A stretch of DNA of 44,287 nucleotides from Eubacteriaceae bacterium (lineage in GTDB: Bacteria; Bacillota; Clostridia; Eubacteriales; Alkalibacteraceae), in NCBI GenBank assembly GCA_013335935.1, contig JAAXUP010000009.1:1-44287 (forward strand), in the 5' to 3' direction. Shown piece after piece: positions 9,846 to 36,738 of the stretch. The notes under the pieces were generated by a model, which did no database searches, was not told the DNA's origin, and worked only from the letters and a program-made list of their open reading frames with translations. A program made the translations under genes and the position numbers. Position 1 is the stretch's first letter. Every line of letters starts with the position of its first letter.

Positions 9846-9848
9846 AAA

Positions 9849-9945
9849 ATCACCCCTATTAGACAATTATACAGTCAAACAGGGGTTCCTTTATTCTTTG
9901 TAAAATTTAATGTAGTTGGACAAACGAAACGTCCCGCTGTCCGGG
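9849..9945. repeat. Composite repeat, copy 1: hairpin H1 (AATCACCCCTATTAGAC..CAGTCAAACAGGGG), spacer, then REP-b (TGGACAAACGAAACGTCCCGCTGTCCGGG)
   Basis: Same architecture as copy 2 at 10654-10745. The 29-bp REP core is identical between the two. Confidence 0.75.
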
Positions 9946-16065: not shown

Positions 16066-16497
16066 TCACACACGTTTCAGGATTATGGAATCCATTTCCT
16101 TAACGTTCTTTGAAAAATCACCTACGAGTATGGCTGCCTCCACAGGCTGAATCCTGTCGATGAACTTTTTCATACTTTCAGGTGTATCATTTTTAATACG
16201 ATATGATGTGGCATAGTAGCCCTCGTATGCTAAACCCAGAACGTAGGAACTCAGTTTACCCTTAACGGAAGAATAAATATCATCATGTACAAGAACCAGA
16301 AGTTTTCCCTTTGGATAATTTCTTTCTGAAAAAACTTCGAGATATTCCAACCCTTTAGGAAAAGCAGGCCTTGTCTGCAACTCGGCGATAAAATTAATTC
16401 TTGAAAGCAGTGCGGTCATTTGAGATTTGAACTCGATTCTTCCAGCAAGCACCTGACGTATTTTCGTAAGGTCTGGCAACGAAAACGCTAAAGCCAT
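16066..16497 (-). CDS. Hypothetical protein
   Basis: ORF with an AAAGGAG RBS before MALAFSLPDL. No family recognised. Confidence 0.4.
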   Translation of the reverse strand: MALAFSLPDLTKIRQVLAGRIEFKSQMTALLSRINFIAELQTRPAFPKGLEYLEVFSERNYPKGKLLVLVHDDIYSSVKGKLSSYVLGLAYEGYYATSYRIKNDTPESMKKFIDRIQPVEAAILVGDFSKNVKEMDSIILKRV

Positions 16498-16748
16498 TTT
16501 CTCAACTCCTTTCTGATTCAAACAAGAAAAGCAACTGCGTATTCACAGCTGCTCCAATGACAAATAAAATAAGAATCATGGGCAACTGGCTACCTTTGGA
16601 TCTCCCTTTAGGCCCTACAGTTTTGCGTCCCCGCTTTTCAGCAGGTTTGCCTTTTCAACTAATTCAAAATTGTATATCTGTATGTATTTATGACAATTTT
16701 ATACCCTGGATATCTCTTGTTCAAACATTTTCCTGCGATGCTCCTGTC

Positions 16749-19594: not shown

Positions 19595-20419
19595 ATGGAA
19601 AAGAAATTATCAGGGAAGGTTGCCCTCGTGACTGGCGCCGCCCGGGGAATAGGTCGGGAATATGCCTTAAGACTAGCCAAGTTAGGCGCAGATGTAGTCA
19701 TAACCGATATCGATCTTTCGGCGGGTATCTATAAAGAAACTGACATTTCCGCCTCAACCGTCAAAGAAGAGCTGGAACTTTTGGGTGTTAAAGCACTGGA
19801 ATTTCAAGGAGACGGAACCGATGAGTCGTTTGTAAAGGAAGTGATTCGCACCACTCAGGATCAGTTGGGAAGGCTCGATATCCTGATCAATAACATTGGC
19901 GGGACAGGTGGTGCAGGGCCTGGACTTTCCACAGAGATGTCGGTAGAAAAGTTTCGAAAGGTGATCGATATCAATCTTGTAACCACCTTTATCTATTCCA
20001 AATACGCTGCTCAAATCATGAAAGAACAAAAAAGCGGAAAAATCATCAATGTAGCCTCTGTCGCTGCTTTCGTACCCCTCTTTGTTGTACAGCCACACTA
20101 CGCAGCAGGTAAAGCCGCCGTGATTTCTCTGACGAAGACGATGGCTTTGGAACTGGCCCCTTACGGTGTGACGGTCAATGCCATCGCGCCTGGTTACATT
20201 GGCACCGTTAAATGGGATACTCACTTTCAAAGTCAAATGGACGAACTGGTACGGAAGGTTCCTCTGGGCAGAATTGGAACCACAGAAGACTGTGCAAAGG
20301 TCATCGAATTTTTGGCAACGGATTTGTCCGACTATCTTACTGGACAAACCATTTTAGTTGATGGCGGTCTGCTGGAACTCAATCCCTCATCGGTCAGCAC
20401 AGAAACCTATCACGTATGA
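19595..20419 (+). CDS. SDR-family oxidoreductase
   Basis: TGAARGIG cofactor motif and a YxxxK catalytic pair (YAAGK). Confidence 0.8.
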   Translation: MEKKLSGKVALVTGAARGIGREYALRLAKLGADVVITDIDLSAGIYKETDISASTVKEELELLGVKALEFQGDGTDESFVKEVIRTTQDQLGRLDILINNIGGTGGAGPGLSTEMSVEKFRKVIDINLVTTFIYSKYAAQIMKEQKSGKIINVASVAAFVPLFVVQPHYAAGKAAVISLTKTMALELAPYGVTVNAIAPGYIGTVKWDTHFQSQMDELVRKVPLGRIGTTEDCAKVIEFLATDLSDYLTGQTILVDGGLLELNPSSVSTETYHV

Positions 20420-22915: not shown

Positions 22916-23920
22916 TTAGAGAAAAAGATAGCCAAAAGCATTGAAGCTATATCCAATGATGATAATTCCCAGGGTCACCGTTCCGGCGAAAATCACCAGA
23001 AGTTTGGTCTTCACAACCTTTTTAAGCATGATCATGGATGGCAGCGAAAGTGCGGTAACCGCCATCATGAAAGAAAGTGCTGTTCCCAGTCCTACTCCTT
23101 TTAGTACCAGGGCTTCTGCAATGGGAAGTGTCCCAAAAATATCAGCATACATGGGGACTCCAACCAGGGTCGCCAGCAGGACCGAGTACCATTTATCCTG
23201 GCCAAGGACAGCAGAAATCACACTTTCAGGGATCCAGTTGTGTATGAGTGCTCCGATTCCAACGCCAATAAGGATATACAGCCATACCTTCTTAATGATA
23301 CTCAGTACCTGTTCCTTGCCGAATTCCATTCGGTCTCTTCTGGTGAGACTTTCCTGAGCCACTTCCATTACCTTACTGCCGTACACGAAGGGTTCAACAT
23401 ACTTCTCCAGTTTGGCCAAACTGATCACGGTCCCTCCTGCCACCGCAAGGATAAGACCTACCACTACATAGGCGATGGCGATCTTCCAATTGAAGATACT
23501 AGCCAGTAGGAGTACCGAGGCCAGATCCACCAATGGCGAGGAGATCAGGAATGAAAAGGTGACCCCGATTGGCAGCCCGGCACTTGTAAACCCGATAAAC
23601 AAAGGGATGGAGGAACAGGAGCAAAAAGGTGTGATGGTTCCCAGCAGCGCTCCCAGGATATTTGCGGTTATCCCGTTGAATCTTCCCAGTATCTTCCGTG
23701 TCCTCTCTGGAGGGAAATAACTCTGAATGTAGGAGATACAAAAGATAAGTATGGAGAGCAGGATAAATATTTTAACCACATCGTAGATAAAAAAATGGAT
23801 GCTGCCTCCCAAGGGCTCTGAAATTTTTAGTCCGAATACATTCTCTACCAGTTGCTTGACCATATCGTACAGCCATTGCATTTTTAATAGCTGGTTGTTT
23901 AACCAAGTAAATAAATCCAA
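22916..23920 (-). CDS. DUF318/ArsP-like permease
   Basis: Polytopic membrane protein with the TPFCSCSSIP motif. Confidence 0.7.
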   Translation of the reverse strand: MDLFTWLNNQLLKMQWLYDMVKQLVENVFGLKISEPLGGSIHFFIYDVVKIFILLSILIFCISYIQSYFPPERTRKILGRFNGITANILGALLGTITPFCSCSSIPLFIGFTSAGLPIGVTFSFLISSPLVDLASVLLLASIFNWKIAIAYVVVGLILAVAGGTVISLAKLEKYVEPFVYGSKVMEVAQESLTRRDRMEFGKEQVLSIIKKVWLYILIGVGIGALIHNWIPESVISAVLGQDKWYSVLLATLVGVPMYADIFGTLPIAEALVLKGVGLGTALSFMMAVTALSLPSMIMLKKVVKTKLLVIFAGTVTLGIIIIGYSFNAFGYLFL

Positions 23921-23924
23921 ATAA

Positions 23925-24293
23925 TTACCTCCTCAGCATTTCTTCCTGAAATGTCTGTTTTTTCTCTGCCTTAGTACCGATGCTGTTAAGAAGCTCCTGA
24001 ATATTGTTAAGCCTTTCTGCATGGATGGAATATTTCATCCAAATTCCATCTTTTCTTCCCTTAACTAAGCCGCTTTCAATCAGGATCTTCATATGGTACG
24101 AAAGTGTGGGCTGTGTGATCTGAAATTTCTCAAGGATATTGCAGGCGCAGAGTTCACCCTCAGTAAGCATGGTAAATATCCTCAGCCTTGTCTCATCGGA
24201 AAGCGCCTTAAAAAGATGGGCATACCCTGTATATTCTTTTTCCACTTTTTCACCTCTGGTCTTATTCCGCCCAATGCATAAATGCTTATGCAT
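23925..24293 (-). CDS. ArsR/SmtB-family metalloregulator
   Basis: HTH ELCACNILEKFQITQPTLSYHMKIL, where the CAC may form a metal-binding site. Start at the first ATG (MHKH...), which lies inside the palindrome. Confidence 0.75.
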   Translation of the reverse strand: MHKHLCIGRNKTRGEKVEKEYTGYAHLFKALSDETRLRIFTMLTEGELCACNILEKFQITQPTLSYHMKILIESGLVKGRKDGIWMKYSIHAERLNNIQELLNSIGTKAEKKQTFQEEMLRR

Positions 24294-24338
24294 AGACAAC
24301 TCTCTATATGTAGTTTATCTCACACATAGAGAGTTGTC
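24274..24338. promoter_or_regulatory. Candidate ArsR operator(s): 20-bp palindrome ATGCATAAatgcTTATGCAT, plus a 13-bp perfect inverted repeat GACAACTCTCTAT-N18-ATAGAGAGTTGTC that overlaps the arsR -35 (TTGACA) and start codon
   Basis: Seen directly in the divergent arsR/sigma-54-regulator intergenic region. Confidence 0.5.
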
Positions 24339-24449: not shown

Positions 24450-25844
24450 ATGTCTAAAGATTGTGATACGCGGTTTAACGACCTGCTTCTGGAGGTTGAA
24501 GCGATAATGGAGTCAACTCCAGACGGACTTTATACTACTGACGCAAAAGGCAATATTTTAAGGTTCAACAGTATGCTGGGAAGAATTCTGGGAATCGACA
24601 CCTCTGTGCTTGCAGGAAACAGTCTTAAGGAACTTAAAGAGAAGGGCTGCTATCCAGAAAATGTAGCCCTCATGAGCATCGAGCAGAAAAAAAGCATTAC
24701 CCTGACTCAGGAGCTCCCAGATGGCAGACATGTGATCATATCTTCTTACCCGATTTTCAGAGACAGCGAAGTGGCTTTCACGGTAACCAAAATTCGGGAC
24801 ATGGACGAGCTCAGCCAAATGCAGGACGAGCTGGAAGCCTTTAAGCGTCTATCCAGCAATTATTACAATGAATTGAAGTTGCTGCGAAAAAGAGCGACTG
24901 AAAGCGGAGAGGTTGTTGTCCAAAGCGAAGCCATGAAAAATGTAGCGGATATCGCCTACCGCATCGCTTCTGTTGACACAACGGTCCTTTTATTTGGAGA
25001 ATCAGGGACCGGCAAGGAAGTCATCGCGAAAATCATCCATACGGAAAGCAAAAGAAATGAAGGCCCTTTCATTAAAATCAACTGCGGCGCCATACCAGAA
25101 AATCTATTGGAGTCGGAGCTTTTTGGATATGCCGAAGGATCCTTTACTGGCGCTGGAAAAGGAGGCAAGCCAGGTTTGCTGGAAGTCGCCAATGGGGGCA
25201 CTCTCCTTCTTGACGAAATCGGGGATCTTCCTCTTTCGCTTCAGGTCAAACTTCTGAGGGTACTTCAGGATCAGGAATACTACCGGATTGGCGATATCAA
25301 ACCAACCAGAACAGATATCAGAATCATCGCAGCCACAAACCGCAATCTGCTTGAAATGGTGAAGTCCGGAAATTTCAGGGAAGACCTTTATTACAGGCTG
25401 AATGTGGTGCAGATCATCATTCCTCCTCTTCGGGAGAGGATCGAAGATATCATTCCCCTGATCTATAATTTTCTGAAAAAATACAATCAAAAATATAATT
25501 TCAACAAGGATATCAATTCCGATGTTGTGGATGAACTCCTCACCTACTCCTGGCCGGGGAATGTCAGAGAGCTGGAAAACACCATAGAAAACATGCTCGT
25601 ACTGAGTCCAAATCATACCATTGAAAAAAGTGCTTTACCAAAAAACATCTTCAAGGATCATGAAGCTGGTTACAATATTCAGTCTCCTAAGGACAAGTCG
25701 AGCCTTGAATTTATGGTGAATAACTTTGAAAAGAAATTGATTGAGAATGCCCTGGCTGAATACGGAAATATGAGCGCTGCTGCTAAAGCCCTTGGCCTCC
25801 ACCGTACTACCCTTGCAAGAAAACTTCACAGGAATCGCAGTTGA
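24450..25844 (+). CDS. Sigma-54-dependent transcriptional activator (PAS sensor, AAA+ sigma-54 interaction domain, Fis-type HTH)
   Basis: Walker A GESGTGKE, GAFTGA, and a C-terminal HTH (AAAKALGLHRTTLARKL). Confidence 0.85.
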   Translation: MSKDCDTRFNDLLLEVEAIMESTPDGLYTTDAKGNILRFNSMLGRILGIDTSVLAGNSLKELKEKGCYPENVALMSIEQKKSITLTQELPDGRHVIISSYPIFRDSEVAFTVTKIRDMDELSQMQDELEAFKRLSSNYYNELKLLRKRATESGEVVVQSEAMKNVADIAYRIASVDTTVLLFGESGTGKEVIAKIIHTESKRNEGPFIKINCGAIPENLLESELFGYAEGSFTGAGKGGKPGLLEVANGGTLLLDEIGDLPLSLQVKLLRVLQDQEYYRIGDIKPTRTDIRIIAATNRNLLEMVKSGNFREDLYYRLNVVQIIIPPLRERIEDIIPLIYNFLKKYNQKYNFNKDINSDVVDELLTYSWPGNVRELENTIENMLVLSPNHTIEKSALPKNIFKDHEAGYNIQSPKDKSSLEFMVNNFEKKLIENALAEYGNMSAAAKALGLHRTTLARKLHRNRS

Positions 25845-25859
25845 AACGCTCCGAAAATA

Positions 25860-25974
25860 GTGCATATGCGCACTACCTCCGTGCGTAATTGCACAGCAAC
25901 GTAATACGTAGGTTTCAGAACCCTGTCATGTCTTTCGTCCTGCGTCTGATCAAAGCTTACGTGCATTATTGCAC
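25860..25974 (+). promoter_or_regulatory. Three GTGC-N6-GCAC dyads (25860-25873, 25881-25894, 25961-25974). Candidate enhancer (UAS) sites for the adjacent sigma-54 activator.
   Basis: Seen directly. They lie 75-190 bp upstream of the -24/-12 element. Confidence 0.45.
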
Positions 25975-26010
25975 ACACCCTTGCATTCCTGTTGATTTCA
26001 CGATCCCCTG

Positions 26011-26040
26011 AAAGCCTGTATCACCAGGCTTTTTTTATTT
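26011..26040 (+). terminator. Terminator for the regulator gene
   Basis: aagcctgta tcac caggctt followed by T7. Confidence 0.65.
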
Positions 26041-26049
26041 TTCATAAAA

Positions 26050-26066
26050 TTTAGACATACGGCATG
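26050..26066 (+). promoter_or_regulatory. Sigma-54 promoter: GGCATG-N5-TTGCA (-24 GG, -12 GC)
   Basis: cGGCATGATACTTGCAtt matches the consensus TGGCACG-N4-TTGCW. It lies ~70 nt upstream of the RLP start. Confidence 0.7.
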
Positions 26067-26132
26067 ATACTTGCATTAACTATATGCAGGCAGGGTATGA
26101 ATTGATTGAAAAGATTAAAGGAGATGTTGATT

Positions 26133-27446
26133 ATGTATTATGATCCCATTATGTTCAACTGTATGGAAGGACTTGATATTGAGGAGCATATGATAGCCAC
26201 CTATTATATGCGAGCGGAAATGCCTGTAGAAGCCATCAAATTCGCTCAGGCAATCGCCGCAGAACAGGCTACCGGAACCTGGCTGAATGTTCCCTTTGAA
26301 ACAGCCGAAGTACGAAAAAAACATGGCGCAAAAGTAATAGGTATCTACGAGGTCCCCGCTTATGACAGGGAACTTCCCAAGAACCTGGAATACAGAGATT
26401 TCATCATTAAAATCGCCTTCCCTAATGTAAATATCGGGAATAATTTCCCCATGATTTTCACCACCCTGATTGGAAACATCTCTGCAGGGCGGATCAAGCT
26501 GGTGGATATCGAATTTTCGAAAAAATATCTGGAGAATTTCAAAGGTCCGAAATTCGGAATCGACGGCCTCCGGAAGTATCTGGAGATCCCAGACAGACCT
26601 CTCACCCTTGCCATGATCAAGCCCGATGTCGGCTGGACCCCTGAGCAAGGCGGCATTATGGCATATCAGGCCTTCTCAGGAGGAATCGATATCATAAAAG
26701 ATGATGAGCTTGTCGTTGGAGACTCAGATTTTTGTCCATTGACCGCGCGTGTCAAAAAAATAATGGAAGCTGCAAAAAAAGCCGAGGAAGAAACCGGCGA
26801 GAAAAAAATGTACACGCCAAATATCACTGATGATGTCTCCAGACTTAAAGACAACGCCTATAGAGCCCTTGATGCCGGGGCCAACGCCTTGATGATCAAT
26901 ACCTACACTGTAGGATTTTCCGCCTTCAGGATGATCGCAGACGATCCAAACATCAAGGTCCCAATCCTATCCCATCCGGACTACGCAGCCGCCCAATCCT
27001 ACGCTCAGGATACAGGCGTTGCCATCTATCTCCTATGGGGCAAACTGGTGAGAATGGCTGGAGCCGATCTTGCCGTTACCACGAATTATCATGGGAAGAT
27101 TCCCGTTATGAAGGATAGATATATCCAAAGCTGCATCGCTCTTACCATGCCCTTTGGTAAATTGAAACGATGCTTCCCCGCTCCCGGAGGAGGAGTATAT
27201 CAGGGGATCGTTCCAGAGACTATTGACGAAATCGGCAAAGATGTGATACTTGCTGCCGGCGGAGCTGTCCATGGACATCCTATGGGTGCCGTCGCTGGTG
27301 GAAAATCTCTGAGACAGGCTATCGATTCGGTTATGGAAGGCGTCAATATCCGGGAATACGCAAAGGACAAGCCTGAGCTGCAGGCTGCAATAGACGCTTG
27401 GGGAATCTCTAATGAGAAGGAAGATCTCTTCGATATGAAGAAATAA
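26133..27446 (+). CDS. RuBisCO-like protein (form IV RuBisCO large-subunit family)
   Basis: GGIDIIKDDE aligns with RuBisCO GGLDFTKDDE, and MIKPDVGW with KPKLG (K177 replaced by D). TIM-barrel C-terminal domain. Start at MYYDP, preceded by an AAGGAGA RBS. Confidence 0.75.
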   Translation: MYYDPIMFNCMEGLDIEEHMIATYYMRAEMPVEAIKFAQAIAAEQATGTWLNVPFETAEVRKKHGAKVIGIYEVPAYDRELPKNLEYRDFIIKIAFPNVNIGNNFPMIFTTLIGNISAGRIKLVDIEFSKKYLENFKGPKFGIDGLRKYLEIPDRPLTLAMIKPDVGWTPEQGGIMAYQAFSGGIDIIKDDELVVGDSDFCPLTARVKKIMEAAKKAEEETGEKKMYTPNITDDVSRLKDNAYRALDAGANALMINTYTVGFSAFRMIADDPNIKVPILSHPDYAAAQSYAQDTGVAIYLLWGKLVRMAGADLAVTTNYHGKIPVMKDRYIQSCIALTMPFGKLKRCFPAPGGGVYQGIVPETIDEIGKDVILAAGGAVHGHPMGAVAGGKSLRQAIDSVMEGVNIREYAKDKPELQAAIDAWGISNEKEDLFDMKK

Positions 27447-27449
27447 CAT

Positions 27450-27478
27450 TTGACTTGACGTTCGTTTTCAACTATAAT
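27450..27478 (+). promoter_or_regulatory. SigmaA promoter: TTGACT, 17-nt spacer, TATAAT
   Basis: Seen directly. It begins at the RLP stop codon and drives the riboswitch transcript. Confidence 0.6.
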
Positions 27479-27495
27479 AAACAAAAATATACAAG

Positions 27496-27655
27496 GTTAT
27501 AGGTGCTCTTAAAGAGAGAATAGGGAATCAGGTGTAAATCCTGAACGGGCCCGCCACTGTAACAGGTTAGTGTATGCCATTGCCACTCATTGTTCGGGGA
27601 AGGCGGCATATGCAACGATCCTTAAGTCAGGAGACCTGCCTATAACTTGAATGAT
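27496..27655 (+). promoter_or_regulatory. Cobalamin (B12) riboswitch
   Basis: Matches the cobalamin riboswitch core AGGGAAtcaGGTGtAAATCCtgaACGGGCCCGCCACTGTAA and the B12 box GTCAGGAGACCTGCC. Confidence 0.85.
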
Positions 27656-27693
27656 CTGTCCCGAGTCAGGATGGAGATTTGTGAGGATGTTGG

Positions 27694-27728
27694 AAAGTCC
27701 ACGCTTTTATAAGCGTGGACTTTTTTGT
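27694..27728 (+). terminator. Riboswitch expression-platform terminator
   Basis: aaagtccacgctt ttat aagcgtggacttt followed by T6, immediately before the RBS of the first gene. Confidence 0.75.
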
Positions 27729-27745
27729 GTGAGAGGAATGACGAA

Positions 27746-28771
27746 ATGAAAAAACTTATACTGGCTAAAACTGAAATCTTCAAAACAGTGGTCGCACCTG
27801 AAATTCATTTGGAGGATCGTGAAATTTTAATTAAGGTTGCTTTCAGCGGCATCTGCGGGGCGGATATGAAAAGCTTTCGAAAAGGACACAGGGATCTGGT
27901 ACTTCCCCGAGTCTTAGGCCATGAAATCACCGGAACTATTCACAAAATGGGTAAAAATGCAAAAACGAACTATCAGATTGGTGACAGGGTACAGATATTT
28001 CCCGGAGTATTTTGCGGTGAATGTGAATATTGTCTAACCGGGCGAGATAACCTCTGTGACACCATGCAAATCCTGGGTTTTCACATTGACGGAGGACTCC
28101 AGGAATACCTTGTTGTCAATCGGGAGATCCAGGAAAATATGCTTAACCTCATCCCAGACGGGCTCCCTATGGAATATGCCACCTTCGCCGAACCCCTTGC
28201 CTGTTCCATCAATATCCAGGATAAGCTGGATTTAGGCACGGAGGATACCCTGCTGATCCTGGGTGCCGGAAGACTGGGTATGATAAATTATTTTCTTGCC
28301 AGGAAAAGAGGGCTAAGAAAGGTCATTATAGCGGACAACTTCTCTCCAAGGCTGGACAAAACCCTTTATGATAACACCATTGATTTGACAGCGTCCGATC
28401 CATTAAAGACGCTTGCTGAAATTACCGGGAAAATAGGAGTCACTGGGGTAATCATCTGCACACCTTCCCCAGCTTCCCTGGAGCTTGCCATCAGCCTGGC
28501 CGCTAAAGGAGGCAAGATCGGTTACTTCAGCGGTCTCCATGAATTCCCGATCTCAACAAAACTTTTAAACTATTTGCATTACAAGGAGCTTGTTGTTACA
28601 GGATCCTACGGCTGTACCCTTCAGGGGAATAAAGATGCACTGGAGCTTTTACGGGATAAGCTTATTCCTTTCGATAAAATCAGCCTCAATTTTTTCAGCC
28701 TGGAGGATACCCAAAAGGCAGTTGAAATGCTTGAAAACAGAGAAATTCTTTCAGCAATCGTTAAACTATAA
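27746..28771 (+). CDS. MDR-family Zn-dependent dehydrogenase (threonine/sorbitol-dehydrogenase-like)
   Basis: GICGADMK, GHE, structural-zinc cluster CGECEYCLTGRDNLC, and GAGRLG Rossmann. Confidence 0.75.
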   Translation: MKKLILAKTEIFKTVVAPEIHLEDREILIKVAFSGICGADMKSFRKGHRDLVLPRVLGHEITGTIHKMGKNAKTNYQIGDRVQIFPGVFCGECEYCLTGRDNLCDTMQILGFHIDGGLQEYLVVNREIQENMLNLIPDGLPMEYATFAEPLACSINIQDKLDLGTEDTLLILGAGRLGMINYFLARKRGLRKVIIADNFSPRLDKTLYDNTIDLTASDPLKTLAEITGKIGVTGVIICTPSPASLELAISLAAKGGKIGYFSGLHEFPISTKLLNYLHYKELVVTGSYGCTLQGNKDALELLRDKLIPFDKISLNFFSLEDTQKAVEMLENREILSAIVKL

Positions 28772-28820
28772 GTACAAAATATTAAAAATCGTGAACCCAA
28801 GAAAAAGGAGAGTATGAAAA

Positions 28821-29936
28821 ATGGAAAACAAAGGAATGGAAATGAAGGAATTTGGCGGTCTTATCGCCAAGCTGTCAAGAAGAGAGAACTTGTCAAAGGA
28901 GGAATCAGACAGAGCCTTCACATCGCTATTAAACAACGAACAAAACGACATGCAGCAGGGAGCGTTCCTTTCAGCCCTGACCACCAAAGGAGAGACTATC
29001 GAGGAGATGGCTGCCTGCTGGAGAGCGATCTATCACGTGGACACCATAAAACCTGAAACCCTCCTGGATATGAGTTTCACTGACAATTCCGGAACAGGTA
29101 TGGATACCTTCAAGACCTTCAATGTCAGCACGGCTGCTTCCATAATTGCTGCTGCTGCAGGGATCAAAATGGCCAAGCATGGTTCAAGAGCCCTAACCTC
29201 CATGTGCGGAACGATTGACCTCCTGGAAACATTGGGCATCGATGTGGAAGGCGGCGCTGAGCCGGTTGTCCAAAGTATTGAAAAGACTGGCATAGGCATC
29301 TTTAATGGAATGAGCCCGAAGGTTCATCCTCAGGCGCTTGGAAGGATCCTTTCACAAATTTCATTTGGAACGATCCTGAACATATCCGCTTCTCTGGCAA
29401 ATCCTGCCCTTCCAAAATATGCTGTCAGAGGTGTGTACTCAAAGGAAATGCTGGTTCCTGTTGCCAAGCTCATGAGAGAAATCGGATATATACGGGCAAT
29501 GATCATCTTTGGGGAGGCCGAAGGCTTCAGCACCGGAATGGACGAAGCCTCCACCATTGGAAAAACCTACGTAGCCAAATTAAGTGACGACGGAGCCATC
29601 ACCGAATATTGTTTCACACCGGAAGATTTGGGGATCACAAGAGGAAACCCTGATGATCTAAGACCCCTTAAGGACAGAGAGGCTGAAGCGGTAAGGTTTA
29701 TTGAAATACTTAACGGAAGCGACAAGGGCACAAGAAGCGATATCGTATGTCTGAACAGCGGACTGATCTTAGAACTGATGGGTGTGGCTAACAGTCTTAA
29801 AGAAGGCTATGAAATGTCAAAAAACATTATCGACGACGGCCGAGCCTATCAAAAGCTCTTTGACTGGGTAACCCATCAGAATAGCGATGACAGTGGTGTC
29901 AAAAAACTCGAAATTTTGGCAGCAAAGGCCAACTGA
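28821..29936 (+). CDS. TrpD-family paralog (glycosyl transferase family 3, anthranilate phosphoribosyltransferase-like)
   Basis: Aligns along its length with the bona fide TrpD at 35128..36159 (RENLSxEE, KGET.EE, TFNVSTAAxIxAAAAG, KHGSR), but the PRPP-binding motif GTGGDG is GTGMDT. Confidence 0.7.
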   Translation: MENKGMEMKEFGGLIAKLSRRENLSKEESDRAFTSLLNNEQNDMQQGAFLSALTTKGETIEEMAACWRAIYHVDTIKPETLLDMSFTDNSGTGMDTFKTFNVSTAASIIAAAAGIKMAKHGSRALTSMCGTIDLLETLGIDVEGGAEPVVQSIEKTGIGIFNGMSPKVHPQALGRILSQISFGTILNISASLANPALPKYAVRGVYSKEMLVPVAKLMREIGYIRAMIIFGEAEGFSTGMDEASTIGKTYVAKLSDDGAITEYCFTPEDLGITRGNPDDLRPLKDREAEAVRFIEILNGSDKGTRSDIVCLNSGLILELMGVANSLKEGYEMSKNIIDDGRAYQKLFDWVTHQNSDDSGVKKLEILAAKAN

Positions 29937-31718: not shown

Positions 31719-32516
31719 CTAATTGCTGATTGCATCCTTAAGTTCCCCTACGAACTTCCTGACCTTCTCTACGGAACTTCCGTCTTCCAGACCTTCCTCG
31801 ATTTTTTTGATGATTGCGCTCCCAACGATGAGTCCCTCCGCCAGGTCTTTGAGTTCTCTGATAGCTTCAGGGCTTGATATTCCAAACCCGATTGCCCGGG
31901 GCACAGAGGTGTAACCTGCAATGCTTTCAAGAAACTCTCCCAGGTTCTCCGAAAAACTGCTTCTCATACCGGTTACCCCAAGAGAGGAAACACAGTAGAT
32001 GAACCCCGAGGCGTCTTCAACGATACTCTTTACCCTTTCATTTGACGTCGGGGCAACCAATGGTATCAGATCTATGGCATGACTTTTCAGGGCATCTTTA
32101 AAATCCTTTCTTTCTTCCAAAGGCAGGTCTGCGATAATCAGACCGTCCATTTCTGTCTCATCACACCTCATAATGAATTTATCCATACCATACCTTAGGA
32201 TCGAATTGTAATATAGAAGAAATGCCATGGGTATCTTCGTTCTTTTCCTAACCCGCCTGATCATTTCAAAGATATCGTCAATATTAATATTATTTTCCAG
32301 TGCTCGCTGAGCAGCCCGCTGGATCACGGGCCCATCTGCCAGGGGATCAGAATAGGGGATGCCCAGTTCTATGATATCTGCACCGGCCTCTTCCATGGTG
32401 TAAATGAGTTCTTCTGTCTTTTCCAGCGTCGGATCACCTGCGGTGATATATACGATAAGCGCTTTTTTGTTTTCGCCCTTCAGTTTTTCGAAATTCGTGG
32501 TTATTTTACTTTTCAT
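31719..32516 (-). CDS. trpA: Tryptophan synthase alpha subunit
   Basis: TrpA family. Its start overlaps the trpB 3' end. Confidence 0.85.
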
Positions 32517-33720
32517 GTCGTCTGCCTCCCAGAATTTCTGCCACCTGCTCCACATCCTTGTCCCCTCTGCCTGAAAGATTCACGATGATGATATCCTCCT
32601 TACGGGTGGTTGGAGCAAATTTTTCCACATATGCCAGAGCATGAGAACTTTCCAAAGCGGGTATGATTCCCTCTATCTGGGAAAGGAGCTGGAAGGCTTC
32701 AATGGCTTCATCGTCCGTGACAGACACATATTGAACCCTGCCTGTGTCGTGAAGGTAGGCATGTTCCGGTCCGATGCCGGGGTAGTCCAGCCCTGCGGAG
32801 ACAGAATGTGCCGGCAGGATCTGCCCATAGTCATCCTGAAGAAGATAGGTCATCATACCGTGTATGATTCCTAAGGATCCTTTCGTGAAAGAAGCTGCAT
32901 GCTTCTCCGTTTCCACTCCCTCACCGGCAGCTTCCACCCCAATGATCTTTACCTCCTTGTCTTCAATAAAAGGATAAAAAAGACCCATGGCATTGCTTCC
33001 GCCGCCGACACAAGCCACCAGATAATCAGGAAGTCTTCCTTCCTTCTCAAGAATCTGCACTTTGGCCTCGTCTCCAATGATCCTTTGAAAATCCCTGACC
33101 ATGGTTGGGTATGGGTGCGGCCCAACCACCGAACCGATGACATAGTAGGTTTCATCCACATTTGCGACCCAGTCCCGGATAGCTTCGTTGGTGGCATCCT
33201 TCAGCGTTTTTGTCCCTGAAGTTACAGGGATGACCTTTGCTCCCAAAAGTTCCATTTTAAATACATTAAGGGCTTGTCTTTTAACGTCTTCCTCTCCCAT
33301 GAATACCTCGCACTTTAAACCGAACATGGCGCAGATGGTCGCTGTGGCAACTCCGTGCTGCCCGGCTCCCGTTTCTGCAATGATCCTCTTTTTGCCCATT
33401 CTTCTTGCCAGAAGCACCTGACCTACCACATTGTTGATTTTATGAGCTCCTGTATGATTGAGATCTTCCCGCTTGAGGTAGATCTTTCCACCTCCAAGCT
33501 TTTTCGTAAGGTTTTCCGCATAATATAGAGAAGTCGGCCTTCCGGAATACTCTTTCAGATAATACAGGTAGTCTTTTTTGAACTTTTCATCATTTATTGC
33601 CTTGATATATTCTTCCTCAAGCTCAATCAGAGCATTCATCAGGGTTTCAGGAACGTACTGACCTCCATATTGCCCAAACCTGCTTTGAAGTTTATATTTA
33701 TCCTTGTCATTTATTTTCAT
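32506..33720 (-). CDS. trpB: Tryptophan synthase beta subunit
   Basis: PLP-lysine region HTGAHKINN, and GGGSNA. Confidence 0.9.
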
Positions 33721-34333
33721 AGCTTCTCACCTTTTCGATAATTTTTCTTATTTTCTCTTTATCCTTGAATCCACCAGTTTCGACACCGCTGCTGATATCC
33801 AGTGTATCGATTCCCTCTATTTTCAGAGCTTCCTCTATATTTTCTTCGTTTATTCCACCAGCCAGGATCAGCTCCTTGTCGCATTTCAGATCACTTAGCA
33901 TCTTCCAGTCAAAAACTTCTCCTGTCCCGCCGTATGCCTTTTTATTGAAAGCATCTAAAAGATATCCATCGGCATTAAAGGTTTCCATTACCCCAAGGTC
34001 TTCAGACGACCTTATCCTAAACGCCTTCCACACCTTCATCCCTGGGCTGTTTTTTAAAACCCTCACATCATCTCTGGTTTCCTCACCATGAAGCTGAACA
34101 ATATCCAGTCCACAGAAATCCGCGATCCTTTTAACCTCTTCTACGTCCTCATTTACAAATATTCCGACTTTTTTGATATTCTTGTCCAATAGACAAGACA
34201 GTTTCTTTGCCATTTCAGGGGTTATCTGTCTTCTGCTTTTCGCGAAAATGAAACCCACATAATCAGGCCTGAACGCATTGACATAATCTACGTCCACCTG
34301 CCTTCTTATTCCGCATATCTTGACCTTTTTCAT
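33707..34333 (-). CDS. trpF: Phosphoribosylanthranilate isomerase
   Basis: [12 protein letters not shown]-terminus, TrpF family. Confidence 0.85.
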
Positions 34334-35109
34334 TTTTTCCCTCTTAGCTCAGCAATCTTAGCGGAAATCGAGTCCGCTCTCATGAAGGTTTCCCCAATAA
34401 GGACACCATTCACTCCTACACCTCTAAGATACTCCATATCTTCATAACTATCAATCCCACTTTCACTGATCACGATTTTTCCCTTGGGAATATATTCTAT
34501 TAGCTTTTCTGTGGTTTTGATATCCGTTACGAAAGTATTTAGATCCCGGTTGTTGATTCCAATAATTTCAGCATCTGTAGAAAGGACTCTGTCCAATTCT
34601 TCCTTGTTATGAACTTCCGTAAGGACCTCAATTCCCAGCTCACGGGCAGTTTGGCTTAACGTTTTAAGTTCCAGGTCTGTGAGAGATGCCGCAATCAAAA
34701 GGACCGCATCTGCGCCAAGGACCTTCGCCTCGATGATTTGGTAAGGATCCAGTATGAAATCCTTCCTCAGGATCGGCCTGGTTGTATTTTCTTTAACCAG
34801 GGGGATATAGATTTTGTCTCCCAGAAAGAAATCTGTTTCCGTAAGAACCGATATTGCCTGGATATCACTTTTCTCATATTCTCTGGCGATTTCCACAGGA
34901 TCAAAATTTGGCCTGATCAGTCCTTTTGAGGGAGAGGCTTTCTTCACCTCTGCTATGATTGAAAGTCTGTCCCCCAGAACCAGACTTTTTGAAAATCTTT
35001 TAGTCATCCTGGTATCTTCGATCATGTCCCATAGCATATCCGATGATATCCGCGCTTTTTCCTCTATGAGAGCTTTTCTCTTGTTTTCATTTATTCGATC
35101 AAGTATCAA
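34330..35109 (-). CDS. trpC: Indole-3-glycerol phosphate synthase
   Basis: TrpC family (IIAEVKKASPSKG). Confidence 0.85.
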   Translation of the reverse strand: MILDRINENKRKALIEEKARISSDMLWDMIEDTRMTKRFSKSLVLGDRLSIIAEVKKASPSKGLIRPNFDPVEIAREYEKSDIQAISVLTETDFFLGDKIYIPLVKENTTRPILRKDFILDPYQIIEAKVLGADAVLLIAASLTDLELKTLSQTARELGIEVLTEVHNKEELDRVLSTDAEIIGINNRDLNTFVTDIKTTEKLIEYIPKGKIVISESGIDSYEDMEYLRGVGVNGVLIGETFMRADSISAKIAELRGKK

Positions 35110-35127
35110 CTTGTATTCTTCCTTCCT

Positions 35128-36159
35128 TCAGTAGTGAAATATTTTAGCAACCTCTTGAGATATTCTGATAAATTCATTCAGCTTTTCCATTGCCCTGCCA
35201 GAATCGATGGCTTGTCTGGCCAATTGGATTCCTTCCATAATGGAGTCGGCTTTTCCTCCCATATAGATCGCTGCTCCTGCATTAAAGAGAATAATATCTC
35301 TAACTGTGCCTTCCCCCCCGTTTAACAGGGATATGATCATTCTGGAATTTTCTTCAGGATCTCCCCCTTTTATGTCATCAATATTTCCCCTTTTGAATCC
35401 AAAGCTTTCCGGTTCGATATAATAGGTTTTGATTTCTCCATCTTTCAGTTCTGATACCTTCGTCGCTGCGGAGATACTGATTTCATCCAGTCCGTCCATC
35501 CCGTGAATGATCAGCGCTCTCTTTAGTCCCAGTTCCTTTAGCACCTGTGCGATGGTTTCAGTCAATTTTTCATCGAACACTCCGATAATCTGACTGTTTA
35601 CCATTCCTGGATTGGCGAGAGGTCCAAGGATATTGAAAATTGTTCTGACTCCCAGTTCTCTTCTGGCTTTCATGACATACTTCATGGAAGGATGGTATTT
35701 GGGTGCGAAGAGGAAGGTGATTTTCGCTTGAGCAAGACATCTCTGGGCACCTTCCGGATCCAAATCAATATTTACTCCAAGGTCTGCCAGGACGTCAGCA
35801 CTGCCGCACTTGCTGGATACACTACGGTTTCCATGCTTCACCACTGTGACTCCCGCAGCTGCTGCAACGATTGCTGCCAGGGTAGATACATTGAAAGTAT
35901 GCTTGCCGTCTCCCCCTGTGCCGCAGGTATCGATGGCATTTTCATCCAGTACATTAACCTTGGAGGCTTTCTCTCTCATTACCTTTGCGCAGCCGGTTAT
36001 TTCTTCTTTTGTTTCACCCTTTGCTCTCAGCGCAGTCAGGATGCCGGCGATTTGTGAGTCGGTGAGCTTTCCGCTCATTATTTCATTCATCAGAGTTACC
36101 ATTTCATTTTCAGAAAGGTTCTCCCTGTTGATCAGTTTTTCCATCATTTCTTTATACAT
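35128..36159 (-). CDS. trpD: Anthranilate phosphoribosyltransferase
   Basis: DTCGTGGDGKHTFNVST and KHGNRS motifs. Confidence 0.9.
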   Translation of the reverse strand: MYKEMMEKLINRENLSENEMVTLMNEIMSGKLTDSQIAGILTALRAKGETKEEITGCAKVMREKASKVNVLDENAIDTCGTGGDGKHTFNVSTLAAIVAAAAGVTVVKHGNRSVSSKCGSADVLADLGVNIDLDPEGAQRCLAQAKITFLFAPKYHPSMKYVMKARRELGVRTIFNILGPLANPGMVNSQIIGVFDEKLTETIAQVLKELGLKRALIIHGMDGLDEISISAATKVSELKDGEIKTYYIEPESFGFKRGNIDDIKGGDPEENSRMIISLLNGGEGTVRDIILFNAGAAIYMGGKADSIMEGIQLARQAIDSGRAMEKLNEFIRISQEVAKIFHY

Positions 36160-36171
36160 TCATTATTCCTC

Positions 36172-36735
36172 CTACATATTCAAAAAGTTACGTAATATCT
36201 CTTTCCCGCTTTCTGTCATGACCGACTCTGGATGAAATTGAACGCCATATATGGGGTAATCTCTGTGTTTTAAACCCATGATTTCTCCGTCTTCTGTCCT
36301 GGCGGTGACGATGATTTCTTCAGGGAGGTTTTCATCGTTCACCTTCAGGGAGTGGTACCTCATAACCGTTAGTGGATTTTTTATATCCTTGAAAAGACCT
36401 TTGCCATCGTGATCGATTCTGGAAGTTTTCCCATGAAACATCAGTCTGCTCTCGACGATCTCCCCGCCAAACACCTCGGCAATGGCTTGATGTCCCAGAC
36501 AAACGCCCAAAACCGGAATTACCTTGCCAAAGCATTCAATAACTTCCTTTGATATGCCCGCACTTGAAGGATATCCTGGTCCAGGAGAGATGATGATGTG
36601 CTGGGGCTTCAATAGCAGAAGGTCCTCTATGGTGATTTCATCATTTCGTATGACTTTAACATCTGGATTGATCTCCCCAATATACTGATAAAGGTTATAG
36701 GTAAAGGAATCGTAATTATCGATGATCACTACCAT
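36172..36735 (-). CDS. trpG: Anthranilate synthase component II (glutamine amidotransferase)
   Basis: Class I GATase with GVCLGHQ (catalytic Cys) and a His/Glu triad. Confidence 0.85.
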   Translation of the reverse strand: MVVIIDNYDSFTYNLYQYIGEINPDVKVIRNDEITIEDLLLLKPQHIIISPGPGYPSSAGISKEVIECFGKVIPVLGVCLGHQAIAEVFGGEIVESRLMFHGKTSRIDHDGKGLFKDIKNPLTVMRYHSLKVNDENLPEEIIVTARTEDGEIMGLKHRDYPIYGVQFHPESVMTESGKEILRNFLNM

Positions 36736-36738
36736 TTT

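Follow-up and report, generated by a model that had tools for sequence, protein, structure and literature searches.

Two questions are raised by the gene for a RuBisCO-like protein (RLP) found on a contig of a Eubacteriaceae MAG: whether it is the target of the enhancer-binding protein (EBP) encoded upstream of it, and what reaction its product may catalyze. We have analyzed in silico the whole stretch of 44,287 bp (the window), relying on domains, motifs, conservation, EBP-RLP linkage and the pattern of active site residues. All the features reported by a first-pass annotation were found again where it had placed them (Table 1). Judging from sequence comparisons, the regulatory architecture that it proposed, consisting of the EBP, the dyads, a -24/-12 promoter and the RLP, is very likely correct, and it is probable that EBP and RLP form a self-contained unit in which one activator serves one target.

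Table 1. Features of the EBP-RLP locus, in window coordinates.
Feature	Position	Strand	Details and basis
EBP gene (PAS / sigma-54 AAA+ / Fis-type HTH activator)	24450..25844	+	464 aa; Pfam
UAS dyad 1, GTGCATATGCGCAC	25860..25873	.	centre 194.5 bp 5' of the -24 GG
UAS dyad 2, GTGCGTAATTGCAC	25881..25894	.	21 bp from dyad 1; 173.5 bp 5' of the GG
UAS dyad 3 (proximal), GTGCATTATTGCAC	25961..25974	.	centre 93.5 bp 5' of the GG
Intrinsic terminator of the EBP gene	26010..26043	+	between UAS and promoter; folding energy
Predicted sigma-54 promoter, cGGCATGATACTTGCA	26060..26075	+	GG 26061-26062, GC 26073-26074; motif match and conservation
Ribosome-binding site AAGGAG	26118..26123	+	9 nt 5' of the ATG; read from the sequence
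RLP gene	26133..27446	+	437 aa; KPD motif; metal site K189/D191/E192
Downstream boundary of the RLP transcript	27450..27727	+	sigma-70-like promoter, cobalamin riboswitch, riboswitch terminator

The activator, its putative enhancer sites and the predicted RLP promoter

Pfam recognizes in the EBP a PAS domain (aa 15-62), a Sigma54_activat domain (aa 156-322, E = 1.4e-69), AAA_lid_14 and a Fis-type HTH_8 (aa 425-460, E = 1.2e-11); on the DNA the PAS sensor spans ~24492-24809, the sigma-54 AAA+ domain ~24915-25415 and HTH_8 ~25722-25829. Walker A (GESGTGKE), Walker B and the GAFTGA loop, here in the form GSFTGA, can be read directly in the sequence, and the combination of a PF00158 AAA+ domain carrying a loop of this type with a C-terminal HTH is that of a bacterial sigma-54 activator. 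As the contig (44,287 nt) does not include rpoN, only the EBP points to the presence of sigma-54 itself. The top NCBIfam match is PrdR, an identity that we rejected: with 446 bits the score falls short of the cut-off of 795, the alignment is confined to positions 126-575 of the 577 in the model, and the target is RLP, not prd. Among 5.8 billion proteins there are only four orthologues with at least 60% identity (P0122-P0125, 60-67%), the similarity extending to the PAS domain; all four are encoded next to a gene for this RLP, in tandem or divergently, with unrelated flanking genes. The next-best EBPs (≤54% identity) are not beside it, and the nearest group outside the orthologue set adjoins a gene for an Fe-ADH.

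The sequence GTGC-N6-GCAC occurs exactly three times in the window, counting both strands (0.14 occurrences expected by chance; maximum of 2, with none of 100 shuffles reaching 3). Read with its flanks the dyad becomes (T)GT-N10-AC(A), which places these sites, on sequence grounds, in the TGT-N10-ACA class known from Clostridial PAS-EBPs. A search of other genomes, as suggested by the first-pass annotation, recovered the same class of motif upstream of -24/-12 elements that precede RLP or ADH-RLP: dyads and promoter element stand together 5' of RLP, or of a Zn-ADH-RLP operon, in seven independent lineages with differing gene order and flanks (loci L001-L004, L006, L005, L009, L090 and L096). 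The common architecture consists of two dyads 20-21 bp apart (distal pairs also in L005, L009 and L096) and one more dyad located 59-81 bp (start to start) 3' of a distal dyad (also in L001, L006, L009, L090 and L096), with centres 72-245 bp from the GG across lineages and 320-390 bp in L005. The original proposal that a PAS/sigma-54 activator drives RLP through three dyads is supported by this conservation of dyads and promoter in seven lineages and by the linkage of EBP to RLP.

The promoter, cGGCATG-ATAC-TTGCA, is the sole match in the window, a count that is not significant by itself (0.33 expected). Its spacer had been given as GGCATG-N5-TTGCA; it is in fact GGCATG-N4-TTGCA, which corresponds to the canonical GG-N10-GC, placed 5' of RLP and 3' of the UAS. 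The base preceding the GG is C where the consensus has T; overall the element fits the Clostridiales sigma-54 consensus TTGGCATNNNNNTTGCT (PMC6615313). In L001, L005, L006, L009, L090 and L096 a promoter of the form TGGCA(C/T)-N5-TTGC(A/T) is found 28-66 nt 5' of the first gene of the RLP operon. In 1.33 Mb of related loci this pattern has a frequency of about one per 63 kb and strand; chance therefore does not account for its presence, in each of these lineages, no more than 70 nt from the start of the operon. Transcription is predicted to start at about 26085-26087. The stem of the EBP terminator (26010-26033) is followed by a T-run (-11.7 kcal/mol, z = -4.9). Translation of RLP starts at the ATG at 26133 (MYYDPIMF, conserved in L001, L006 and L096, where the arrangement of RBS and ATG is also equal) and not at the TTG at 26106. 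Folding reveals no terminator 3' of the RLP stop and no hairpin in 27440-27484; directly 3' of the gene there are a sigma-70-like promoter (27450-27478) and a cobalamin riboswitch (27484-27657), whose own terminator (27692-27727, -22 kcal/mol) is the first that the RLP transcript would meet. In L001-L004 a peroxiredoxin gene lies 3' of RLP, with a separate sigma-70 promoter and a PerR-like box; L006, L005 and the window do not have this gene.

RLP had also been described as an orphan, monocistronic gene. This holds for the contig and for relatives with 89-91% identity, but relatives at 85%, 83% and 66% identity have a sigma-54 promoter followed by Zn-ADH and then RLP; from these comparisons, the single-gene state looks derived by reduction from ADH-RLP. 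The conserved Zn-ADH partner is not encoded anywhere in the 44 kb (identity to it is only 27-32% for the two Zn-ADHs that are), and no kinase or PTS gene is close to RLP in the window, so that any pathway logic has to be taken over from relatives sharing 50-85% identity. In Anaerofustis-type relatives (65% identity) RLP comes with a sigma-70-type promoter and without EBP or dyads: control by sigma-54 is thus the feature of one sub-clade and not of the enzyme family.

Active site and affiliation of the RLP

Both RuBisCO domains are recognized in the RLP, PF00016 (RuBisCO_large) with 176.8 bits (cut-off 30.1) and PF02788 (RuBisCO_large_N) with 37.5 bits (cut-off 20.7), at E = 8e-52. Residues were mapped on spinach RbcL (sequence verified as identical to 8RUC), whose numbering we use unless the position is of the RLP itself. 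Six of the 20 RuBisCO active site positions are substituted (T173M, K177D, R295P, H298A, H327V, S379G), while E60, T65, W66, N123, K175, K201, D203, E204, H294, K334, G380, G381, G403 and G404 are retained; L335I is also changed. The KPK motif reads K163-P164-D165 in the RLP, and the earlier reading of this KPD as the mark of a form IV protein, not a carboxylase, was right: both Pfam domains are present and the metal site (K189/D191/E192 of the RLP) is kept, but the set of carboxylase residues is incomplete. A bona fide RuBisCO of forms I-III is ruled out, since the residues for catalysis and substrate binding are not complete. K177 is lost, and so are R295, H298 and H327 of the distal-phosphate site, whereas the Gly motifs that bind the proximal phosphate are kept.

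The closest solved structures are those of MtnW (265 bits) and of the C. tepidum RLP (245 bits), with weaker scores for 3NWR (144 bits) and 3QFW (122 bits), and the RLP is below cut-off for every NCBIfam equivalog, including the two for MtnW (NF007095, 344.2 vs 409; TIGR03332, 294.5 vs 513.6). E60, N123 and the loop-6 K334 are invariant in the RLP family and lost in the MtnW and C. tepidum references. The position of spinach N123 is Asn115 in the RLP, is Asn in 37 of 37 family members, and is Lys in both YkrW references; it aligns with residue 98 of G. kaustophilus, the catalytic base Lys of MtnW, a role that Imker et al. reportedly described in 2007. The phylogenetic placement called for by the first-pass annotation yielded a separate clade for the RLP family, sister to YkrW and with the C. 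tepidum RLP outside, in a NJ tree that took in two YkrW references only. On these sequence comparisons we are highly confident that the RLP is neither a carboxylase nor MtnW, and it is classified as a form IV member of a large, uncharacterised clade of anaerobes beside IV-YkrW.

Genomic context, proposed function and alternatives

A survey of 77 loci shows RLP genes next to those for SorC regulators (28), FGGY kinases (22), Zn-ADHs (14), EIIC-GAT PTS components (13), PEP-hydrolase-like proteins (24) and UPF0261 (16), the last being a kinase domain (PMC12624787). Kinase or PTS genes are found in 35 of these loci, and some sugar-type neighbour in 67. The clade is linked repeatedly to three phosphorylation systems, namely the Gat-type PTS, the FGGY kinase and the UPF0261-type kinase. 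In Peptococcia and Propionispira RLP is part of a sigma-54/LevR-type operon (EIIA-EIIB-EIIC-ZnADH-SorC-RLP-aldolase II), while in Syntrophomonas-type loci it sits between UPF0261 plus PEP-hydrolase-like genes and a ComB-like phosphatase. Class II aldolase genes (MtnB/Ald2-type family) adjoin RLP in L091 and the PTS clusters. Since the neighbourhoods are heterogeneous across the family, its members may not share one substrate.

The phosphorylation systems (PTS, FGGY, UPF0261), the polyol-type dehydrogenases and the SorC regulators near the relatives suggest an isomerase of keto-sugar monophosphates, and we tentatively propose that the RLP is an enolising isomerase of a ketose monophosphate. The EBP would be a one-component regulator that senses a small molecule or redox signal via its N-terminal PAS domain; we infer that it binds the three dyads, centred ~94, 174 and 195 bp 5' of the promoter, and, through ATP hydrolysis and its GSFTGA loop, would open the sigma-54 RNA polymerase complex. 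A transcript beginning about 47 nt 5' of the ATG would then encode RLP and stop 250 nt further on, at the terminator of the cobalamin riboswitch, or, at low B12, may run into the next operon. The enzyme would deprotonate a ketose or diketone monophosphate beside its carbonyl, in a Mg2+-dependent, RuBisCO-style reaction, and the resulting enolisation would lead to isomerisation or epimerisation, as a late step of a polyol or sugar-phosphate route whose upstream steps, in relatives, would be provided by a PTS or kinase and a polyol-type Zn-dehydrogenase. EBP binding, in vivo dependence on sigma-54, inducer, substrate and reaction are all to be read in this conditional sense. In a broader formulation, to which we give somewhat less than even chances, a clade widespread in anaerobic Bacillota, Chloroflexota and archaea would carry out a reaction so far unassigned in RLPs on a phosphorylated keto-polyol or enol-phosphate substrate, with C-C chemistry possible, and would be reduced here to a one-gene regulon under a private PAS-EBP; if so, the ligand of the EBP would report the pathway substrate.

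Other explanations of the regulatory part of the locus have to be weighed against this scheme. The dyads might be operators of another regulator, or serve only autoregulation, with RLP transcribed from a sigma-70 promoter and a fortuitous -24/-12 match, as the lack of significance of the lone match within the window and the lack of rpoN on the contig would allow. We consider this highly improbable: dyads, -24/-12 element and EBP are co-conserved across seven lineages with differing gene orders, the sigma-54 interaction domain of the EBP is intact, and the stretch from the terminator (26033) to TTGAAA at 26106, with a -10 hexamer that overlaps the start codon, shows no sigma-70-like site. It is also improbable that the unit responds to redox or oxidative stress, with O2 or redox state perceived by the PAS domain and the RLP assigned a role linked to stress or sulfur on the model of the C. 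tepidum RLP. PAS domains are often redox or O2 sensors (PMC6615313), the C. tepidum RLP is one of the nearest homologues with a solved structure and L001-L004 have the peroxiredoxin gene 3' of RLP; this gene, however, has its own promoter and PerR-like box and does not occur in L006, L005 or the window, the C. tepidum RLP falls outside the family in the tree, and the family-wide neighbours are sugar-metabolic.

With respect to the reaction, salvage of SAM by-products, with the RLP isomerising 5-methylthioribulose-1-P or 5-deoxyribulose-1-P and the EBP sensing a sulfur- or SAM-related metabolite, agrees with the conserved proximal and lost distal phosphate site, because its substrates are 2-keto-1-phosphate monophosphates; it also agrees with the class II aldolase genes in L091 and the PTS clusters, and a solitary inducible enzyme would suit salvage. 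We regard it as unlikely, as no conserved mtnA, mtnK, mtnP, mtnN or cupin partner is near RLP in the window and the annotated close loci, and the surroundings are dominated by genes for sugar PTS, FGGY kinases, SorC regulators and polyol dehydrogenases. A role as the DK-MTP-1-P enolase of methionine salvage (MtnW), as in the automatic JGI annotations of several homologues, is favoured by the top PDB and NCBIfam matches but is extremely improbable given the scores below both equivalog cut-offs (344 vs 409; 294 vs 513.6), the invariant Asn at the position of the base Lys, the separation of the clade from the YkrW references and the lack of methionine-salvage genes nearby; no mtn gene is among the annotated ORFs of the window. 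The invariance of E60, N123 and K334 points in another direction, that of C-C chemistry (carboxylation, decarboxylation or transcarboxylation, cf. the apiose-pathway RLPs) on an enol or keto monophosphate by means of the retained CO2-site residues, and the Syntrophomonas-type trio recalls the combination of kinase, carboxylase and phosphatase in acetovanillone catabolism (PMC12624787). This analogy is purely formal, however, K177, R295, H298 and H327 have been lost, the score for the OiaX model is only 196 against a cut-off of 700, and isomerisation is simpler for the ADH and PTS contexts; C-C chemistry as the activity of the clade is, in our view, quite unlikely.

Comparison with known systems

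Among characterized proteins, the solved structures nearest to the RLP, with a full-length match (E = 9e-78), are those of the 2,3-diketo-5-methylthiopentyl-1-phosphate enolase MtnW (IV-YkrW; G. kaustophilus 2OEK, B. cereus 3FK4). MtnW and the RLP have in common the metal site (KCX-D-E), K175 and H294, as well as the loss of R295, H298 and H327, from which a monophosphate substrate can be deduced; they differ in the base (Lys in MtnW, Asn in the RLP), in E60 and K334 (lost in MtnW, kept in the RLP) and in the methionine-salvage gene context, which the RLP lacks. The RLP of Chlorobaculum tepidum (IV-Photo, 1YKW), also a full-length homologue (E = 1.7e-71) and also non-carboxylating, has KPN instead of KPD, and E, R and Q at the positions of N123, K334 and T65. 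A plausible mechanistic analogue, likened by its described reaction and not by sequence, is the R. rubrum RLP (IV-DeepYkr), a 5-methylthioribulose-1-P 1,3-isomerase that enolises a 2-keto-1-phosphate before migration of the carbonyl (PMC6302742); its context, the MTA-isoprenoid shunt, differs from the PTS, FGGY, SorC and polyol dehydrogenase genes found around the RLP family.

On the regulatory side, the closest parallel is offered by the one-component Clostridial PAS-EBPs with TGT-N10-12-ACA UAS motifs (PrdR, AdhR and SadR groups) described by Nie et al. 2019 (PMC6615313), in whose Clostridiales sigma-54 reconstruction PAS is the dominant domain among EBPs. The likeness includes the PAS-AAA+-HTH_8 organization, the proximity of EBP to target, and multiple UAS ~100-250 bp 5' of a promoter of the TTGGCAT-N5-TTGCT type (PMC6615313). 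The EBP and its orthologues form a small group of their own (60-67% identity among them, ≤54% to other EBPs); the EBP lacks the first 125 residues of PrdR, and no RLP target is present in that regulon reconstruction or its supplement. LevR-type sigma-54/PRD PTS operons include RLP homologues with ~50% identity in Peptococcia and Propionispira (EIIA-EIIB-EIIC(GAT)-ZnADH-SorC-RLP...LevR-like-HPr); they rely on a PRD/EIIA-containing LevR instead of a PAS-EBP, and the window is devoid of their PTS, conserved ADH partner and SorC, but their occurrence indicates that sigma-54 control of the RLP family recurs. The sigma-54 mechanism is canonical and the RLP is a new target for it, and the recurrence of the EBP-RLP unit in related anaerobes offers a practical handle on the function of the RLP family.

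The RuBisCO-like protein and its class

To our knowledge most clades of RuBisCO-like proteins (RLPs) have no assigned reaction, and these clades are central to ideas on the origin of RuBisCO chemistry. There is no doubt about the fold of the RLP in the window. We aligned it to spinach RbcL (the reference sequence was confirmed to be identical to the 8RUC chain), whose numbering is used here. Residues E60, T65, W66, N123, K175, K201, D203, E204, H294, K334, G380, G381, G403 and G404 are kept, and seven positions are replaced (T173M, K177D, R295P, H298A, H327V, L335I, S379G); at the K177 position the family of homologues has Cys or Asp. In RuBisCO the distal (C5) phosphate is held by R295, H298 and H327, and the proximal phosphate by the Gly motifs, T65 and W66. 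Because the distal-phosphate residues are replaced and the proximal ones kept, a monophosphate substrate is expected, and a function as RuBP carboxylase is impossible. The first-pass annotation had assigned the protein to form IV, as a non-carboxylase, from its KPD motif; all the replacements except L335I bear this out.

Identity with MtnW was also considered and rejected. The protein scores below both NCBIfam cut-offs (344 vs 409 and 294 vs 513.6), and the position of spinach N123, which we take to be that of the base Lys of MtnW, is Asn in 37 of 37 family members sampled. In a neighbour-joining tree whose RLP references were two YkrW sequences and the C. tepidum RLP, 82 family sequences form their own clade, sister to YkrW, with the C. 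tepidum RLP outside; the phylogenetic placement that had been proposed is thus achieved relative to these two groups. It is very probable that the RLP is non-carboxylating and is not MtnW. The YkrW (MtnW) and C. tepidum RLPs differ from the family in that E60, N123 and the loop-6 Lys are kept in the family only. Because the family keeps them, carbamylated K189 (window numbering; spinach K201) is the likely base, as in RuBisCO, which would imply deprotonation of the carbon beside the 2-keto group of a substrate resembling a 1-phospho-ketose.

The activator, the dyads and the promoter

Features of the regulatory unit and its downstream boundary in the window (EBP, enhancer-binding protein; L-numbers denote loci with RLP or EBP homologues)
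Feature	Coordinates	Strand	Details
EBP ORF	24450-25844	+	464 aa; Pfam and reading of the sequence
Three exact GTGC-N6-GCAC dyads	starts 25860, 25881, 25961		first one 16 bases past the EBP stop codon
Hairpin and T-run	26010-26043		-11.7 kcal/mol, z = -4.9 (folding)
Promoter cGGCATG-ATAC-TTGCA	26060-26075		canonical GG-N10-GC spacing
Ribosome-binding site AAGGAG	between promoter and RLP ATG		
RLP gene	ATG at 26133		N-terminus MYYDPIMF kept in L001, L006 and L096
Sigma-70-like promoter TTGACT-17-TATAAT	<=3 nt past the RLP stop codon		
Cobalamin riboswitch	after the sigma-70-like promoter		112.8 bits
Terminator of the cobalamin riboswitch	27692-27727		-22 kcal/mol, strong

The window is a complete contig of 44,287 bp from an NCBI MAG labelled Eubacteriaceae bacterium. 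Its EBP matches protein P0121 at 100%; according to Pfam it has a PAS fold in residues 15-62, then a Sigma54_activat AAA+ domain in residues 156-322 (E 1.4e-69), an AAA lid and, in residues 425-460, a Fis-type HTH_8. Its Walker A motif reads GESGTGKE and its sigma-54 contact loop GSFTGA, a variant of GAFTGA. The three dyads are the only GTGC-N6-GCAC matches on either strand of the contig; dinucleotide shuffling gives an expectation of 0.14, and none of 100 shuffles contained three. With its flanks the dyad reads (T)GTGCA-N4-TGCAC(A), that is, TGT-N10-ACA. Activator and dyads are therefore present as first described, the domains being recovered by Pfam and the dyads by scan; the -24/-12 element is also present, with a spacer of N4 rather than N5 and with CGG rather than TGG at its start. 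Since the promoter pattern by itself is not significant within the window (0.33 expected), the regulatory reading rests on other genomes.

No terminator was found 3' of the RLP gene, and 27440-27484 does not fold. Beyond this point (27450-29936) the strong sigma-70-like promoter, the riboswitch and its terminator control two genes, one for a Zn-ADH and the other for a second TrpD-like phosphoribosyltransferase (260 bits on TIGR01245). The latter shares only 35% identity with the canonical TrpD encoded in the complete trp operon (31719-38193, minus strand); this B12-controlled paralogue might be linked to the activation of cobamide lower ligands. On the other side, an ArsR/ArsP permease pair (22916-24299, minus strand) diverges from the EBP, and an inverted repeat CTCTCTATATGT...ACATAGAGAG at its 5' end (24300-24332) is probably an ArsR operator; a separate locus with a 52% EBP paralogue, L099, also has an ArsR/ArsP pair close by. 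Elsewhere in the window a c-di-GMP-I riboswitch (16578-16661, minus strand, 73 bits) lies upstream of an ORF at 16066-16521(-) with no Pfam match.

Conservation of the unit and the orphan state

The closest RLP homologues were drawn from metagenomes and GTDB genomes. In L001-L004 and L006 (RLP 89% identical to that of the window) the EBP is divergent from the RLP, with two perfect dyads (GTGCAAATATGCAC, present twice in L001) and with TGGCATGTAAGTTGCA or TGGCACGCAAGTTGCA placed 64-66 nt before the RLP ATG. At 85% identity, L005 has the order EBP, dyads, TGGCATAGAACTTGCT, Zn-ADH, RLP; L090 (83%) has a terminator, dyads and TGGCATAGTTATTGCA, and L009 (66%) three dyads and TGGCACGATAATTGCA, each followed by Zn-ADH and RLP. 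The search for the dyad upstream of sigma-54 promoters in other genomes, suggested by the first-pass annotation, was thus successful in all these loci and in L096. Common to them is a dyad pair 20-21 bp apart, with a third dyad that starts 59-81 bp downstream of the start of a distal one, and a dyads-to-promoter distance of about 70-245 bp, or 320-390 bp in L005, where about 300 bp of extra sequence (6590-6890) separates dyads and promoter. Related loci (2 x 1.33 Mb) contain 42 matches to the promoter pattern, and because this background is only about 1 per 63 kb per strand, the position of the pattern immediately before the operon in all these lineages is not due to chance.

A search of 5.8 billion proteins yielded four EBP orthologues (P0122-P0125, 60-67% identity), all four adjoining the gene for this RLP; below these, identity is at most 54%, mostly in longer proteins that carry additional PAS or CBS domains, and EBPs at 40-54% identity are found at other sites, in one case beside an Fe-ADH. 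The EBP of L096 (P0124) is divergent from an RLP whose first 192 residues are 91% identical to those of the window, with three exact dyads spaced by 20 and 66 bp and the promoter TTGGCATAACAATTGCAT. Scanning metagenomes with just the EBP sequence gave no match, and a scan with an EBP alignment gave only the known locus and 40% paralogues without an RLP. The orthologous group appears to be private to the RLP. The unit is flanked in the window by ArsR/ArsP and a riboswitch operon, in L001 by genes for an ADH and a peroxiredoxin, in L005 by ApbA and a flavodoxin-like gene, and in L096 by an uncharacterised ORF and, beyond the RLP, an HTH gene; because these flanks differ in every lineage, EBP, upstream dyads, promoter and RLP are taken to act as a unit. 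IS200-like Y1 transposase genes lie a few kb from the unit in the window (9087-9866, minus strand) and in L001 (2795-3739, minus strand), and could be related to its differing arrangement. Anaerofustis-type relatives (RLP 65% identity) are without sigma-54 control, which they have lost or never had. In two of them, L086 and L089, the RLP gene lies behind a sigma-70-like promoter (TTGACA...TATTAT), overlapped in L086 by a different palindrome, AACATAACTATG...CATAGTTATGTT; these sequences suggest repressor control in place of sigma-54 control.

The description of the RLP as an orphan is correct for the 44-kb contig, on which no partner-family ADH, kinase or PTS was found. The window and its 89-91% relatives have retained just the RLP and its activator, and the orphan looks like a reduced form of the ADH-RLP operon. 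Several candidate partners were rejected. The Zn-ADH at 27725-28771 has 26-33% identity to the partner ADH family of the relatives, and its own promoter and cobalamin riboswitch in front. In L001 and L006 an ADH adjoins the EBP, and its orthologue in the window (14061-15083, minus strand) is 83% identical; neither copy has a -24/-12 element in its upstream region, which is of the sigma-70 type, and each shows about 30% identity to the partner family, so that the adjacency is taken as incidental. The window SDR at 19595-20419 clusters with RLP-near SDRs at only 34-36% identity, and we regard it as generic. In L001 a peroxiredoxin gene lies downstream of the RLP; it is not conserved and has a separate promoter and a PerR-like box.

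Neighbourhoods, proposed reaction and known sigma-54 regulons

Genes were called and clustered in 77 loci with family members, and cluster representatives were annotated by Pfam and NCBIfam. Neighbours include a SorC/DeoR sugar-phosphate regulator (28 loci), PEP-hydrolase-like genes (24), FGGY kinase (22), UPF0261 (16), Zn-ADH (14), Gat-type PTS EIIC (13) and a LevR-like EBP (7); any kinase or PTS is found in 35, and any of these sugar-type neighbours in 67 of the 77. In Peptococcia and Propionispira a sigma-54 promoter is followed in turn by EIIA-EIIB-EIIC, Zn-ADH, (EI or PHP), SorC, RLP, (class II aldolase), (SDR), LevR-like EBP, HPr. The Zn-ADH of these operons, of the threonine/xylitol/sorbitol-dehydrogenase branch, has 40-44% identity to the ADH directly before the RLP in L005, L009 and L090. 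In L016, L017, L019, L023 and L024 sigma-54 promoters (e.g. TGGCATAATACTTGCA), some 5-6 kb ahead of the RLP, precede EIIA-EIIB-EIIC(GAT)-ZnADH-...-SorC-RLP operons with a LevR-like activator, and sigma-54 control of the family therefore recurs with another activator class; L031 shares this gene order, with no sigma-54 promoter match found. In Syntrophomonas-, Formimonas- and Desulfoscipio-type genomes (L034, L035, L037, L038, L040, L044, L050, L051, L065 and others) two PEP-hydrolase-like genes (PF09370) and one for UPF0261 come directly after the RLP, often together with a 2-phosphosulfolactate-phosphatase-like gene, a kinase/RLP/phosphatase set of formal likeness to kinase-carboxylase-phosphatase ketone pathways.

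It is probable that a PAS-sensed signal acts through the EBP on the three dyads and the sigma-54 promoter to express the RLP. The EBP would assemble on the dyads in response to the signal, looping and ATP hydrolysis would produce the open complex at the -24/-12 promoter, and the mRNA would end at the riboswitch terminator or, at low B12, read into the ADH/TrpD-like operon. As to the reaction, we propose, tentatively, that the RLP enolises a ketose (or diketone) monophosphate in a Mg2+-dependent step, so that the substrate is isomerised or epimerised. In the simplest common logic, a PTS or kinase would phosphorylate a polyol or sugar, an ADH or GlpA-like dehydrogenase would oxidise the product to a ketose phosphate, and the RLP would act on the latter. 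Rival explanations are salvage of a SAM by-product, C-C bond chemistry or a redox-stress role and, for control, a sigma-70 promoter or a foreign operator. Given the conserved polyol-type Zn-dehydrogenase and the PTS, FGGY and UPF0261 contexts, the search for the substrate can be narrowed to monophosphates of keto-sugars or keto-polyols. Because the system comprises a single private activator, a defined operator class of 14 bp, a single promoter and a single enzyme, the EBP inducer should point directly to the substrate or pathway; the locus is an unusually clean experimental handle that makes the role of this RLP clade directly testable.

These observations can be set beside published work. 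A recent study showed that UPF0261 is a kinase domain (MarK; PMC12624787). The literature searched for RLPs with UPF0261 and for new RLP functions contained nothing about the present clade; no link between an RLP and sigma-54 was found in it, and an RLP target is absent from the 2019 reconstruction of Clostridiales sigma-54 regulons and its supplement (PMC6615313). New here are the RLP target, the small EBP orthologous group and a map of gene neighbourhoods for a large RLP clade that is uncharacterised, and the RLP is an added target class for clostridial sigma-54 regulons. The mechanism of regulation is canonical, with no sign of a new principle. In that reconstruction (PMC6615313) the promoter consensus is TTGGCATNNNNNTTGCT, upstream activator sites lie mostly 100-250 bp upstream and are usually multiple, 357 of 387 one-component EBPs have a PAS domain, and TGT-N10-12-ACA is the site class of PrdR, AdhR, SadR and other groups; the features of the unit in the window match this published pattern.
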